A DNA stretch of 64,000 nt from Tequatrovirus LF73P3: the sequence record OZ035756.1; one strand, written 5' to 3'. Position numbers and translations under genes: made by a program. The notes below the pieces were generated by a model, which worked only from the letters and a program-made list of their open reading frames with translations, was not told the DNA's origin and did not search any database. Shown one piece after another: positions 4,835-34,539 of the stretch (position 1 is its first letter; the number at the start of each line of letters is the position of its first letter).

Positions 4835-4971
4835 ATATCAAGAACCGTCATTGAAATGCAAAATAAAATTATTGAAATAAATCCATCTGGAGTGCTAAAG
4901 AACCCAATCCAACATGCTCTAGTGAATAGATAAAATGCAAGAAAAAGTATCACATATCCAAGAAATATCAT
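4831..4971 (-). CDS. small hydrophobic protein (46 aa), translationally coupled to gene 47
   Basis: Hand translation MIFLGYVILFLAFYLFTRACWIGFF...; stop overlaps gene 47 ATG (ATGA); below ORF-track size cutoff. Confidence 0.35.
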   Translation of the reverse strand: MIFLGYVILFLAFYLFTRACWIGFFSTPDGFISIILFCISMTVLDI

Positions 4972-4995
4972 TATATCAAACTCCGTATAAAGCTA

Positions 4996-5013
4996 AAGGG
5001 CCGAAGCCCTTTA
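4996..5013 (-). terminator. GC hairpin with UUCG loop after alpha-gt
   Basis: aaagggccgaagcccttt directly after alpha-gt stop. Confidence 0.4.
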
Positions 5014-6213
5014 TTTTGTAATAATGTCAAACTGTTCTTTAAAACAGAAGCTTGAATCTTGATGCTGATACAAAAATTCATATGCTTTTTCTCGCTCACG
5101 GTCATAAAGAGCTTGGTCAGATGACAGTTCTTTAATACGTTCAAATGTTGATTCCATATCATTTTCATCAAACCAAACGATACCGCTATCATGCGAAATT
5201 AGCGGAGTATTATCAACACGGAATTTTAAATTTTCGCCCGTAGATTTCCAAAATACTGGAATTGTTCCACATGCACCAAGCTCGAGATGAGTATATTCTA
5301 AAGAACGTTGTAGATATTTTTTATCTAATTTACTCAGCTGATAACCAAATCCGGATTTACTCATGCGTTCAAGCATTTCGCTATTTACATAACGATCAAG
5401 AATTTGCGTTGGCAAATTAGGAGCAATTTTAATTTGGTCTACTTGATGAAGACGATAATACTCATATGGAATTCCTTTTTCTTTAATAGGAATGAACGCA
5501 GGAGAACGTTCCAGACCTTCCATAATAGTACTTAGCCCAGCAGGTTTAAGATGTTTTTCGTGAAAATCAAACATCTGATAAAAACCTTTCCATGTAGTCG
5601 TACGACCAATCCAGCGGTTGATATTCATGTTAATTTCAGAAACATCTTTCCAGTAGGTTGATCGAACCTTCGCGATATCCATAGGAGGCTGAAAGTTGTA
5701 TACGGTCGGTGCTTCTTCAATATCATCAAACAGAGAAACAGTTTCTGGATACCATTCTTTCATCAGAACTTTATTAAAATCACCATTATCAGAATGACTA
5801 AAAATAACATCAGCTCGACGAACAGTTTCTTCTAATCCCAAATTTCGACGCAAAGAAAGAGAAGAATGGTCATGTTGATAAACTACAACACGAACAGAAG
5901 GTTTAATGTTATCAATAATTTTTTTATAGTTATTAATAGGGTCTTCTTCAACCGAAGTAGCAGGAACTGAATTGATAATTAGAATATCACAATCATTTAC
6001 CAGCTTAAGTGTTTTATCGTATTCTTTTGCCAATAAAACCGGAATTGAAAATGATTTATAATCATGTGCACAGTTACGAGTAAATGATTTATCTTTAGCA
6101 TAAACCAAAGTTACTTCATGACCATTTTTAATAAACCAATCACGCTGCTCGAGAGAAAATTTAGTTACGCCGCAACCTTCAAGACCTCGAGCCATAAAAA
6201 TGCATACTTTCAT
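5011..6213 (-). CDS. a-gt: DNA alpha-glucosyltransferase
   Basis: 400 aa, IFMARGLEGCGVTKFSLEQRDWFIKNGHEVTLVYAKDKSF..., matches T4 alpha-gt. Confidence 0.92.
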   Translation of the reverse strand: MKVCIFMARGLEGCGVTKFSLEQRDWFIKNGHEVTLVYAKDKSFTRNCAHDYKSFSIPVLLAKEYDKTLKLVNDCDILIINSVPATSVEEDPINNYKKIIDNIKPSVRVVVYQHDHSSLSLRRNLGLEETVRRADVIFSHSDNGDFNKVLMKEWYPETVSLFDDIEEAPTVYNFQPPMDIAKVRSTYWKDVSEINMNINRWIGRTTTWKGFYQMFDFHEKHLKPAGLSTIMEGLERSPAFIPIKEKGIPYEYYRLHQVDQIKIAPNLPTQILDRYVNSEMLERMSKSGFGYQLSKLDKKYLQRSLEYTHLELGACGTIPVFWKSTGENLKFRVDNTPLISHDSGIVWFDENDMESTFERIKELSSDQALYDREREKAYEFLYQHQDSSFCFKEQFDIITK

Positions 6214-26507: not shown

Positions 26508-27089
26508 CTAACCAAGCTTTTTAGTTAATTCATTCCAATGTTTTCTACACAAAGAAACATAAATTTCATCACCAATACAGATTTGATTACCTTCTTTAAC
26601 TGGCGTTCCATCTTCCATTAATCGAGCTGTCATAATAGCTTTTTTACCACAATGACAAACTGCTTTTAGTTCAATAAGTTTATCTGCAATCGCCAAAAGT
26701 TCTTTAGAACCTTCAAATAATTTTCCAGCGAAATCAGTCCTTAGTCCATAAGCCATAACAGGAACATTATATGTATCAACAATTCGGCTTAATTGATGCA
26801 CCTGTTCAGTTTTTAAAAACTGGGCTTCATCTACAAATACACAATGAATATCCTTTTGTGCTTCAGCCCATTTATAGAACTCAAAAATATCCATATCATC
26901 CGTAATAATATTCGCTTCCTGCTTAATTCCAATGCGAGAAACGACTTCACAGACAGAATCACGAGTATCAATAGCAGGCTTAAGAACTAATACACCCATT
27001 CCGCGTTCTTTATAATTATGCGCAGCAGTCAAAAGAGAAGCAGATTTTCCAGCATTCATTGTTGCGTAAGTAAAAATTAAACTCGCCAT
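26508..27089 (-). CDS. tk: thymidine kinase
   Basis: 193 aa; P-loop ATMNAGKSASLL, C-terminal Cys pairs CHCG...CR, matches T4 tk. Confidence 0.95.
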   Translation of the reverse strand: MASLIFTYATMNAGKSASLLTAAHNYKERGMGVLVLKPAIDTRDSVCEVVSRIGIKQEANIITDDMDIFEFYKWAEAQKDIHCVFVDEAQFLKTEQVHQLSRIVDTYNVPVMAYGLRTDFAGKLFEGSKELLAIADKLIELKAVCHCGKKAIMTARLMEDGTPVKEGNQICIGDEIYVSLCRKHWNELTKKLG

Positions 27090-27098
27090 ATCACCTTC

Positions 27099-27284
27099 TT
27101 AAAGCGTATTCACATAAGCTATTAATTCGTTTTCTTTCTTATCAAACCGATCAGCAAATTCTTCTTGTTGATCGGGAGATAGCGGGCCGTATTCATCATA
27201 AAAGGTGTTTGCTTCTGTATGCTCATCTAGAAGTTCATGGATAAGCTCAAACAATTTATCTTTTTGTTCTTTACTCAGACTCAT
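27099..27284 (-). CDS. hypothetical acidic protein
   Basis: 61 aa ORF. Confidence 0.45.
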   Translation of the reverse strand: MSLSKEQKDKLFELIHELLDEHTEANTFYDEYGPLSPDQQEEFADRFDKKENELIAYVNTL

Positions 27285-27450
27285 ATATTAATTTCCAGGA
27301 GTTTTAAAATAATTCGCTTTTGCTTAAATATTTCCATAGTTAAATGACCAGTATCTTTTTGACCGATTCCAATGGCAAAACCTTTATTGACAGCGAGTTC
27401 AATTAAATTATCAAGCTCACGTAACACTTCATATTGTAACTCAAAACTAT

Positions 27451-27678
27451 TCATTTCGGTTTACCTTCTTTAACGAAATCGGGATAAGGATAAAATCCTG
27501 AATAAAATCCTTCACCTTTATGATTGATGCATCCTTTATTAGAACAATAGCACCAATAATCGAAATCACAAGCCATTTCATCATTACATAAAGCAAAAAC
27601 AACTGGCCATTCACACTTTTCGCAGTGGGCATTTTTAAGAATACTTGTTTGGCTCATAACCATGTAACCTTTAAACAA
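27451..27678 (-). CDS. cysteine-rich small protein (likely zinc-binding)
   Basis: 75 aa; CEKCEW...CNDEMACDFDYWCYCSNKGC. Confidence 0.4.
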   Translation of the reverse strand: MFKGYMVMSQTSILKNAHCEKCEWPVVFALCNDEMACDFDYWCYCSNKGCINHKGEGFYSGFYPYPDFVKEGKPK

Positions 27679-27866
27679 TATTCTTCTACGTGTTGTTTAC
27701 GACCTTTCTTATCAATAAAGGTATATTCAACGAATGTTCCAATATAGTCTTTATCTACACCATGTGGACTATTAATTGGGCATTTAGTACGGCAAATGCG
27801 TTCCCATTGACGAATAATTTCCACTTTGTTTTTAGGATCAAACGGATGCGGGTAATGTACTTTCAT
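27654..27866 (-). CDS. hypothetical protein
   Basis: 70 aa ORF. Confidence 0.45.
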   Translation of the reverse strand: MKVHYPHPFDPKNKVEIIRQWERICRTKCPINSPHGVDKDYIGTFVEYTFIDKKGRKQHVEEYCLKVTWL

Positions 27867-28317
27867 AATCCACCACTATTAAATCAATATCAGGAGTAAA
27901 CATGTCGATTAATTTAGAAACCTTATCCCAATCGCCGCCAGCAATACCGCAACCTATACGTGGAATGTAAATTACTGGTTTAAACAAAAGGGTTTCTGCC
28001 TGTAGATTTAATTCTATCATGCAGTTTACTAAAGCACCATAATCAAGATTAGGACCCGGTTCGTATTGTGTATACAGGTTATAGCATATACCAAATCCCG
28101 TAGGACTATGTTTAAAAACAATAGACATATCGCCTAATTTATCACGAGAACCGTACTCGGTAGTGGTTTTATCTATTTCTAAAATTTTGGGATAGGCTCT
28201 TGCTAATTGACCCGCTACGCCAGAGCCCATTGTGTGGAAGCAATTGCACCCGTGCGCAATAATATTACCTTGAAGAAATAGGGCGACAATATCGCCCTTG
28301 ATATATTTTACAATCAT
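27838..28317 (-). CDS. macro-domain protein (putative ADP-ribose binding/hydrolase)
   Basis: 159 aa; GDIVALFLQGNIIAHGCNCFHTMGSGVAGQLA and IYIPRIGCGIAGGDW match macro-domain glycine-rich motifs. Confidence 0.55.
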   Translation of the reverse strand: MIVKYIKGDIVALFLQGNIIAHGCNCFHTMGSGVAGQLARAYPKILEIDKTTTEYGSRDKLGDMSIVFKHSPTGFGICYNLYTQYEPGPNLDYGALVNCMIELNLQAETLLFKPVIYIPRIGCGIAGGDWDKVSKLIDMFTPDIDLIVVDYESTLPASV

Positions 28318-28661
28318 CTAGTACTCAATCCTCGATTATAAGAATCTACTAAACGGTCAACCATTGAATGACAAGCGGCTTTATCTTTCTCCTCCGCAAC
28401 TGAACATTCTAAGGTATTCCACTTTTTAGCATATCGTTTTAACAATGTATCATTTTTGTATCTGCTTGATTTATCTCTTTCTCCGTCTTTATATGCATAT
28501 ATTAATTTCTGCGCAAATTCAGCTTGGCATGCTTTATTTTTCCCACAATAATCCGCGGCAGTACGGTTTACATACTCTCTAATTTCAGTATATGATGTAT
28601 CTGCTAACGCAGAAGCAGAAAATGAAATTAATCCTATACATAAAACCAAAATTTTAGTCAT
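28314..28661 (-). CDS. secreted Cys-containing protein (position of T4 vs)
   Basis: 115 aa; N-terminal signal peptide MTKILVLCIGLISFSASALA. Confidence 0.5.
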   Translation of the reverse strand: MTKILVLCIGLISFSASALADTSYTEIREYVNRTAADYCGKNKACQAEFAQKLIYAYKDGERDKSSRYKNDTLLKRYAKKWNTLECSVAEEKDKAACHSMVDRLVDSYNRGLSTR

Positions 28662-29199
28662 TTACTATTTCCAAAAGTTTATTATTTTTAAGGTAATTAG
28701 CCTTTTCTAGGACTTCAGAAGCATATTTAGAACCTGCTTTAACATTCCATCCCGAATTATAAGAGGATATCGCCTTTCTTATATCGCCCTTATGTATATT
28801 TAACCAATAAGAAAGTTCAATGTACGCCCAGGAAGCTGAATTGGACCGTTTATTCAACATTCTTTTTATTTCAGCATCGGTCATATTATAACCAAGTTCC
28901 TTAACTCTTGCTCGCATAGTAGGCAAATAATTTTGGAACATTCCATAGGCATGATGCTTTGGTTTAGATTTTAAATTAACTCCGGCAGAGCTTTCTTGCC
29001 ATAAAATAGCAGCCATTATATGACCCAATCCGCTCTTGTGGATATTTTTGTGTGTTTTATATTTTCCATCCTTAGAAAATTGTTCCCCGAATTGATACGC
29101 GTAACGCATGTTATCGAGTTGGACATTACTGAAAGTATGCTCGGAGCTATGTGCCATCATTGAAATGGCCAATAGACCAGCGAGTAGTGCTTTTCTCAT
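28654..29199 (-). CDS. periplasmic lytic-transglycosylase-like protein
   Basis: 181 aa; signal peptide, ...ILWQESSAGV...AYGMFQ... SLT-like ES/GxxQ motifs. Confidence 0.55.
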   Translation of the reverse strand: MRKALLAGLLAISMMAHSSEHTFSNVQLDNMRYAYQFGEQFSKDGKYKTHKNIHKSGLGHIMAAILWQESSAGVNLKSKPKHHAYGMFQNYLPTMRARVKELGYNMTDAEIKRMLNKRSNSASWAYIELSYWLNIHKGDIRKAISSYNSGWNVKAGSKYASEVLEKANYLKNNKLLEIVND

Positions 29200-29206
29200 G
29201 CTTACC

Positions 29207-29668
29207 TCATTGAGTTTTAATTACTGCTTTAGAAGCCTTTCCTGGTAAACGACGGCTGTTGATAATTGCCATTCTACACTGAAGTGACGGGTCTTTGAAC
29301 TTCGCATTAGGTTTACAAACTGTAAATCCAAGCCAAAGATTTCCATCTGTGATTTCTAAACGCCCAGGACGATATTCAACCCCATCAATAAAATCTTCGT
29401 CAATATCAGGGCGTGGAGGCATACTCAGGAATTCATTAACTTCTAAAACATGGTCTTTTATTTTGTGGAATAATTCAAAAACATATGTCTCATCAATCTC
29501 CCGTTGAATTGCACGATCAAGAAGATGCTGAGAATATTTTAGATGAAACGATGAGACCCCTGCTGCTTTTGATGCCTCACGAATCTCATTGTTAATTTGA
29601 CGAAACTCCGACTCAAAGTGACGACGAAGCTTATTTCGACGGATAAAAACTTCTGTGTTGATAGTCAT
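29207..29668 (-). CDS. regB: site-specific endoribonuclease RegB
   Basis: 153 aa, MTINTEVFIRRNKLRRHFESEFRQINNEIREASKA..., matches T4 RegB. Confidence 0.9.
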   Translation of the reverse strand: MTINTEVFIRRNKLRRHFESEFRQINNEIREASKAAGVSSFHLKYSQHLLDRAIQREIDETYVFELFHKIKDHVLEVNEFLSMPPRPDIDEDFIDGVEYRPGRLEITDGNLWLGFTVCKPNAKFKDPSLQCRMAIINSRRLPGKASKAVIKTQ

Positions 29669-34083: not shown

Positions 34084-34539
34084 TTAAAAGAGGTTGTTCA
34101 TTATTCGGTAAAGTGAAGGACCCATCACATATTGCCACTGAGTACGAGGAATAAGAGCAAAAGCATCCATCTCTGGAATCATAACGCCATCTTTATTTTC
34201 AAAATAAGACTCGCAGCGGCAATTTCTAAACATCTCATGCTCTACTGGAACCGTATAATAAAATAACTGTAAGTCTTTATTACTAGAATATTTAAATACA
34301 CCTAGGTCTTCTAGAAGGTCTGGATTATAATTGCTAAAGCCAGTCTCTTCTAAGCATTCTCTTCGTGCTGCGTCTAGTGCGCTTAAATCAGAATTTTCTA
34401 TACGGCCCTTTGGAATATCCCAGCGATGTGCCATCATTCCAGGTTTACGAGAACCGGTAACTCGTCCCATAAATAAATCTTTATCTTCTGTCATAAAGAT
34501 AATACCAGCTGATAATGTTTTCATTTTAATTTCCTGCAT
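34084..34539 (-). CDS. nudE: Nudix hydrolase NudE
   Basis: 151 aa; Nudix box GRIENSDLSALDAARRECLEETGF. Confidence 0.8.
   Translation of the reverse strand: MQEIKMKTLSAGIIFMTEDKDLFMGRVTGSRKPGMMAHRWDIPKGRIENSDLSALDAARRECLEETGFSNYNPDLLEDLGVFKYSSNKDLQLFYYTVPVEHEMFRNCRCESYFENKDGVMIPEMDAFALIPRTQWQYVMGPSLYRIMNNLF

Follow-up and report, generated by a model that had tools for sequence, protein, structure and literature searches.

Tk.4 (AdfM) of Tequatrovirus LF73P3 is a stand-alone macrodomain of the ALC1/TARG1-like class with a glutamine at the catalytic-lysine position

The minus-strand open reading frame (ORF) at 27838..28317 of the Tequatrovirus LF73P3 sequence is the gene tk.4 of T4-like phages, since renamed adfM, and its product is a macrodomain of the ALC1/TARG1-like class, to which TARG1, DarG, SCO6735, Bt_1257 and Poa1p belong. 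Within this class the aligned residues of Tk.4 speak for a phage branch of the glutamine-type group of SCO6735 and Bt_1257, and against a mimic of DarG. We consider it likely that Tk.4 is a DNA thymidine-ADP-ribose glycohydrolase with a Gln-type site, which would undo the marks left by DarT2 on single-stranded phage DNA. The assignment of tk.4 to the macro domains is already known and has long been annotated; hundreds of sequenced T4-like phages carry the gene, and its anti-DarTG2 function has been published, so that the original prediction of a macro-domain protein was correct, but not new. What the present analysis adds is an active site of the Gln type, the use of the name AdfM for two different phage proteins and a sharply bounded allele polymorphism.

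Identity and context of the gene

The window is the whole stretch of LF73P3 DNA that was analysed (64,000 nucleotides of record OZ035756.1), and all coordinates refer to it. A macro-domain ORF had been predicted between tk (26508-27089, minus strand) and regB (29207-29668, minus strand), and exactly there we find an intact, uninterrupted minus-strand ORF of 159 aa, with an ATG start and a TGA stop, coding for a stand-alone macrodomain. It is directly flanked by tk.3 (27654-27866, Pfam DUF7202) and vs (28314-28661), the latter followed towards regB by vs.1 (28654-29199); a tk.2-like ORF and two small ORFs lie between tk and tk.3. All these neighbours are on the minus strand, like tk.4. Coordinates and sequence alike place the stop codon of vs and the start codon of tk.4 in a common ATGA (28314..28317, minus strand), an arrangement also found in T4, and regB, vs.1, vs, tk.4 and tk.3 are thus tightly packed in one direction. 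Because of this packing with regB, vs.1 and vs, tk.4 is probably expressed early. A promoter scan gave no more sites than expected from shuffled sequence (10 vs 11.4); its best sigma-70-like site is located directly upstream of regB. In the same cluster, the product of vs.1, labelled 'hypothetical protein' in the T4 RefSeq record, contains a lytic-transglycosylase domain of the SLT type (23.4 bits, cutoff 21.3) and starts with an N-terminus that by eye is hydrophobic and signal-like.

At the matching position the T4 genome (NC_000866) carries tk.4 (T4p110, NP_049723), whose 155-aa product is 58% identical to LF73P3 Tk.4 over its full length (E=1e-70); Tk.4 also matches PHROG 335 (E 1e-71). Full-length homology and the location, in the genome of a Tequatrovirus, next to tk.3 on one side and vs on the other identify the ORF as the orthologue of T4 tk.4/adfM. 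In another Tequatrovirus, Shigella phage vB_SsoM_113, tk.4 is 100% identical at the nucleotide level and the gene order is the same. A megablast search with the 480 bases of the gene retrieved 557 phage records, nearly all from T4-like phages of Escherichia, Shigella and Yersinia, 34 of them at 99% identity or more. The T4 RefSeq label reads "phosphatase; Tk.4; contains A1pp phosphatase motif", and other phage records name the same ORF "macro domain protein"; this identity with a named and annotated gene had escaped the original prediction.

A function for tk.4 comes from T4 genetics. In the HIDEN-SEQ preprint of November 2025, a T4 transposon library was screened on a host expressing DarTG2; tk.4 was the single significant hit, a clean deletion of the gene rendered T4 sensitive to DarTG2, and the gene was renamed adfM (bioRxiv 10.1101/2025.11.20.689424). 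This result fills a gap that had been foreseen, since T4 devoid of both adfA and adfN is still resistant to DarTG2 and a further factor had been predicted. The gene adfN (30.3), coding for a NADAR enzyme that acts on guanine-ADPr, and adfA (61.2) are located elsewhere in the T4 genome, away from tk.4. The need for tk.4 in DarTG2 resistance is established for the T4 allele only, and the de-ADP-ribosylation of DNA by T4 Tk.4 is deduced in the preprint from homology (10.1101/2025.11.20.689424).

Fold and active site

Two of the checks proposed with the prediction, a profile search and a structure prediction, spoke for a macro domain. Tk.4 matches Pfam PF01661 (Macro) with E=1.3e-7 and a score of 32 bits (gathering cutoff 22), over profile positions 2-117 of 118. 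A phmmer search of PDB sequences retrieved Bt_1257, Poa1p, SCO6735, DarG and TARG1. A profile of 112 Tk.4 homologues, which reach down to ~40% identity, matched PDB macrodomains with E values of 1e-19 to 7e-10, among them Bt_1257 (1e-19), TARG1 (1.5e-16), SCO6735 (7e-16), Poa1p (5e-14) and M. tuberculosis DarG (1.4e-11); coronavirus Mac1 was matched far more weakly (2e-3). AlphaFold run on the single sequence gave an unusable model (pLDDT 34.5), and we used the model based on the 112-sequence alignment, a high-confidence macrodomain (mean pLDDT 94.5, pTM 0.89) with the three-layer alpha/beta/alpha fold. TARG1, Poa1p, Bt_1257 and DarG ranked highest when this model was compared with the PDB by Foldseek (E ~6e-10 and TM 0.72-0.83 for TARG1 and Poa1p), and the nearest structures are ADP-ribose-bound hydrolases. 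By sequence and by structure, Tk.4 is nearer to the ALC1/TARG1-like class than to the MacroD, viral, PARG and macroH2A classes.

The two motifs that had been read as glycine-rich ADP-ribose-binding loops, GDIVALFLQGNIIAHGCNCFHTMGSGVAGQLA (residues 8-39) and IYIPRIGCGIAGGDW (residues 116-130), are present and coincide with two conserved macro-domain loops, in which His, Gly and Asn columns are invariant or nearly so in the 112 homologues. Loop 1 (residues 22-36, HGCNCFHTMGSGVAG; 28210..28254, minus strand) was delimited by column counts and by alignment with solved homologues; loop 2 (residues 119-130, PRIGCGIAGGDW; 27928..27963, minus strand), the putative diphosphate-binding loop, was delimited by alignments and conservation. 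Within the family, H22, G23, N25, C26, G33, A35, P119 and W130 never vary, and G122, G124 (111/112), G127 and G128 are near-invariant. ADP-ribose would be bound in the cleft between these two conserved loops.

The residue that sets Tk.4 apart from DarG and TARG1 is Gln84 (codon CAA, 28066..28068, minus strand), located by profile and MAFFT alignments and, like H22 and N25, found in 112/112 homologues. In an alignment of M. tuberculosis DarG, T. aquaticus DarG (TaqDarG), Bt_1257, SCO6735, TARG1, PhiKZ gp104 and the two Tk.4 alleles (LF73P3 and T4), Gln84 occupies the site of the catalytic lysine of TARG1 (K84) and DarG (K80), where SCO6735 has Gln85. The HMMER profile alignment likewise sets Gln84 opposite TARG1 Lys84 and Ala126 opposite Asp125, the catalytic dyad K84/D125 of TARG1 being replaced in Tk.4 by Q84/A126. 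The motif at this site reads FPTK in DarG and PhiKZ gp104, ITK in TARG1 and LYTQ in both Tk.4 alleles. N25 of loop 1 pairs with TaqDarG N22, SCO6735 N27 and PhiKZ AdfM N23. Tk.4 thus combines a glutamine at the catalytic-lysine site with the loop-1 asparagine and with equivalents of SCO6735 His24 and Gly128: H22, N25, Q84 and G124 of Tk.4 align with H24, N27, Q85 and G128 of SCO6735.

SCO6735 of Streptomyces coelicolor (PDB 5E3B) and Bt_1257 of Bacteroides (2AFC/2FG1) are Gln-type ALC1-like macrodomains, both with glutamine at the position of Gln84, and their second loops (PRIGCGLAGGTW and PRIGCGLAGGKW, respectively) are near-identical to that of Tk.4. SCO6735 efficiently removes thymidine-linked ADP-ribose from DNA and shields Streptomyces from DarT; its Q85A and Q85E variants are dead and N27S nearly so, and the proposed mechanism is water-mediated, with the distal ribose positioned by Gln85 (PMC9411070). 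The likeness has its limits. The loop after the glutamine, QYEPGPNLDY in Tk.4 against QHGMKTGSKGAPVRY in SCO6735, is some 5-6 residues shorter in Tk.4, which because of this shorter mobile loop has no counterpart of SCO6735 Lys89; the site of Lys34 is occupied by Ser/Ala (position 32 is Ser, Ala or Gly in the family), and Val25 is replaced by Gly23, at a contact that runs via the backbone. In the alignment Tk.4 lacks both features that have been proposed as aids to DNA binding and processivity in SCO6735, namely Lys34 and the longer mobile loop that bears Lys89 (PMC9411070).

TARG1/OARD1 and Poa1p have in common with Tk.4 the (K/R)GD N-terminus, the MG(A/S)G loop and the PRIGCG loop, and Poa1p also shares HxCNC. 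Poa1p differs by a long insertion ahead of loop 2 and by its characterized substrate, the yeast protein being an ADP-ribose-1''-phosphate phosphatase.

DarG is the sole defence-system model that Tk.4 matches, in PADLOC (27.5 bits) and NCBIfam (NF048014; 27.7 bits vs a cutoff of 250, hence below equivalog level), and the match is restricted to the macro part. DarG itself is a protein of ~340 aa that has a DarT-binding domain at its C-terminus and is encoded beside darT; Tk.4, with 159 aa, covers only positions 2-142 of the 338 of the NCBIfam model and lacks that domain, and tk.4 adjoins not darT but vs and tk.3, both of them phage genes. The motif FPTK(K/D)xW, which includes the catalytic Lys80, is present in DarG (M. 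tuberculosis, 5M3I; T. aquaticus, 5M31) and in PhiKZ gp104, whereas Tk.4 reads TQ(Y/F) at this site; the lysine of the DarG FPTKxHW motif is missing from the whole Tk.4 family. TaqDarG is inactivated by K80A, and lysine-dependent chemistry would therefore be closed to Tk.4. We rejected the view that Tk.4 is a true DarG homologue taken from a DarTG2 operon, given its low scores, the missing C-terminal domain and the glutamine in place of Lys80. The Pelagimonas phthalicica homologue of Tk.4 (40% identity) is encoded on its own in the chromosome, surrounded by housekeeping genes, and none of its neighbours resembles darT.

PhiKZ gp104, which has also been named AdfM, removes the thymidine-ADPr made by DarT2 in vitro, and its N23A variant has reduced activity (2026 Cell Reports, PMC13309987). 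Two phage macrodomains that are not orthologous, the Gln-type Tk.4 of T4 and the Lys-type, DarG-like gp104 of PhiKZ, have thus independently received the name AdfM, which conceals that phages acquired macrodomains on two separate occasions.

Proposed activity and its alternatives

The bacterial toxin DarT2 ADP-ribosylates thymidines of TNTC motifs in single-stranded phage DNA and so blocks replication. According to the reading that we favour, Tk.4 would hold the ADP-ribose in a cleft that has loop 1 (HGCNC...MGSGVAG) on one side and loop 2 (PRIGCGIAGG) on the other, and cleave the ribose-N3-thymine bond, releasing free ADP-ribose and leaving the DNA intact. Gln84, held by Asn25, would position the distal ribose and the transition state, the work being done by water. 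This chemistry is probably that of the SCO6735/Bt_1257 type and not the lysine-dependent one of DarG and TARG1. We infer the enzymatic activity, the substrate and the glutamine mechanism from homology and published genetics, together with the equal performance of the 58%-identical LF73P3 allele. Against this reading count the low identity of the LF73P3 allele to the T4 allele used in the genetics, the missing catalytic lysine of DarG and PhiKZ AdfM, the absence of the two SCO6735 features linked to DNA handling, and the HxCNC motif that Tk.4 has in common with the phosphatase Poa1p. TARG1-like enzymes are promiscuous and act on U-ADPr RNA and Glu-ADPr protein as well, so DNA need not be the sole or main substrate of Tk.4. 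If Tk.4 is of the Gln type, Q84 and N25, and not a lysine, are the residues to be targeted by mutagenesis.

Elsewhere in the window, a minus-strand ORF at 34084-34539, which adjoins the lysozyme gene and lies where T4 has e.1/nudE, codes for a 151-aa Nudix hydrolase (Pfam NUDIX, 52 bits). T4 NudE is reported to be active on ADP-ribose; if this holds, the Nudix product could clear away the ADP-ribose that Tk.4 would set free.

Three other activities were weighed against the removal of thymidine-ADPr from DNA. The old 'A1pp phosphatase' label and the proposal of Iyer and Aravind for phage macrodomains (PMC9503650) would have Tk.4 process small soluble derivatives, such as ADP-ribose-1''-phosphate (the Poa1p substrate), O-acetyl-ADP-ribose or ADP-ribose-based immune signals. 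We find this improbable: the lone known phenotype of tk.4 concerns DarTG2 specifically, and this system modifies DNA; the 'phosphatase' names are labels transferred by homology; and no source of Appr-1''-p of the tRNA-splicing type was seen in the part of the window that was inspected (26.5-37 kb). It is, in our opinion, very improbable that Tk.4 neutralizes DarT2 mainly by binding and blocking it, in the manner of the C-terminal domain of DarG, of ICP1 AdfB or of RB69 AdfA. Precedents for such a mode are AdfB, which works through direct interaction, and the catalytically dead SCO6735 Q85A, which inhibits DarT in vitro more than the DarG and TARG1 mutants do (PMC9411070); a toxin-contacting surface would, moreover, explain why Tk.4 is only 58% identical to its T4 counterpart beside flanking genes at 91-99%. 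However, H22, N25, Q84 and G124 are invariant or nearly so in homologues as distant as ~40% identity, which argues for selection on catalysis. Tk.4 also has no DarT-binding domain of the DarG type, and the K80A variant of the TaqDarG macrodomain alone failed to inhibit DarT.

The least probable of the three, in our view, is that Tk.4 reverses ADP-ribosylation of RNA (on uracil) or of proteins, including the marks set by the phage's own enzymes, and is a regulator and not a counter-defence protein. T-even phages do encode ADP-ribosyltransferases, of which Alt, ModA and ModB target arginine. Uracil-linked ADP-ribose on RNA is removed by TARG1, DarG and SCO6735, and SCO6735 and TARG1 de-modify proteins as well (PMC9411070). 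Activity on arginine is, however, absent from those reported for this macrodomain class in the literature consulted, and arginine-specific macrodomains such as MavL are described as a separate family. Furthermore, T4 can do without tk.4 on plain E. coli K-12, and the gene scored only in the presence of DarTG2 (10.1101/2025.11.20.689424). Of the two roles first suggested for the ORF, counter-defence agrees with the published genetics of the T4 orthologue, T4 Δtk.4 being sensitive to DarTG2; a part in Alt/ModA/ModB regulation finds no support here, the activities reported for the class in the literature consulted being on thymine or uracil bases and on Glu/Asp-linked ADP-ribose. Reversal of the arginine marks of Alt, ModA and ModB by Tk.4 was accordingly set aside as unlikely by class membership.

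Allele divergence at tk.4

The tk.4 gene differs strongly between LF73P3 and T4 in an otherwise conserved region. Sliding nucleotide identity and per-gene protein identities delimit a divergent cassette at 27810..28276 (4923-5390 in the numbering of the aligned T4 piece), within which nucleotide identity to T4 falls to 37-80%, whereas the flanks are mostly at 90-100%. The first 16 codons of tk.4 are identical to those of T4, and these together with everything upstream are 97-100% identical in nucleotide sequence. At the protein level, Tk, Tk.3, Vs, Vs.1 and RegB are 98%, 91%, 99%, 99% and 99% identical to their T4 counterparts, respectively, against 58% for Tk.4. The two Tk.4 proteins nevertheless align end to end without gaps and have H22, N25 and Q84 in common. 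Loop 2 reads IGCGIAGGDW in LF73P3 and IGAGIGKGNW in T4, and four additional C-terminal residues (159 vs 155 aa) extend the overlap with tk.3 to 29 nt (27838-27866), compared with 4 nt in T4.

This divergence is part of a wider pattern. A tblastn search found a Tk.4 homologue in 2,859 of 50,697 phage records: 312 records carry a protein at least 90% identical to LF73P3 Tk.4, ~110 one at 60-90%, and a large class, including the T4-type alleles, lies below 60%. At least three protein types (~100%, ~63% and ~58% identical to LF73P3 Tk.4) occur beside vs in T-even genomes that are otherwise near-identical. The sharp borders in the nucleotide alignment make tk.4 look like a gene-precise allele swap, in which a cassette would have been exchanged by recombination in the conserved flanks.

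Two further features were noted near the cassette. Inside the 5' end of tk.4 (28280-28298, minus strand) lies a GC-rich hairpin (AGGGCGATATTGTCGCCCT) with a perfect stem of 8 bp and, after it, a T-rich stretch, which the scan scored as terminator-like; the hairpin is identical in T4 and sits exactly where identity to T4 ends. The hairpin may be a coincidence of the coding sequence or a recombination or regulatory landmark. On the other side, the tk.1-tk.2 segment (27099-27678) also differs from T4: tk.2 is 54% identical, and T4 tk.1 is replaced by small ORFs at 27281-27454 and 27451-27657, which correspond to RB32ORF110c and RB32ORF111c in vB_SsoM_113.

The exchangeable alleles may counter different variants of DarT2 through direct contact with the toxin; they may counter other base-ADP-ribosylating toxins; or they may keep the macrodomain from being sensed or inhibited by host factors. 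It is a tempting but doubtful proposition that Tk.4 is the first phage counter-defence enzyme with a lysine-independent, glutamine/water mechanism and that its alleles differ in the target countered; if true, it would set Tk.4 mechanistically apart from the DarG-type AdfM of PhiKZ. For an enzyme whose substrate is a chemical product that does not vary, so strong a polymorphism as that of tk.4 would not be expected; it could reflect one more layer of the conflict.
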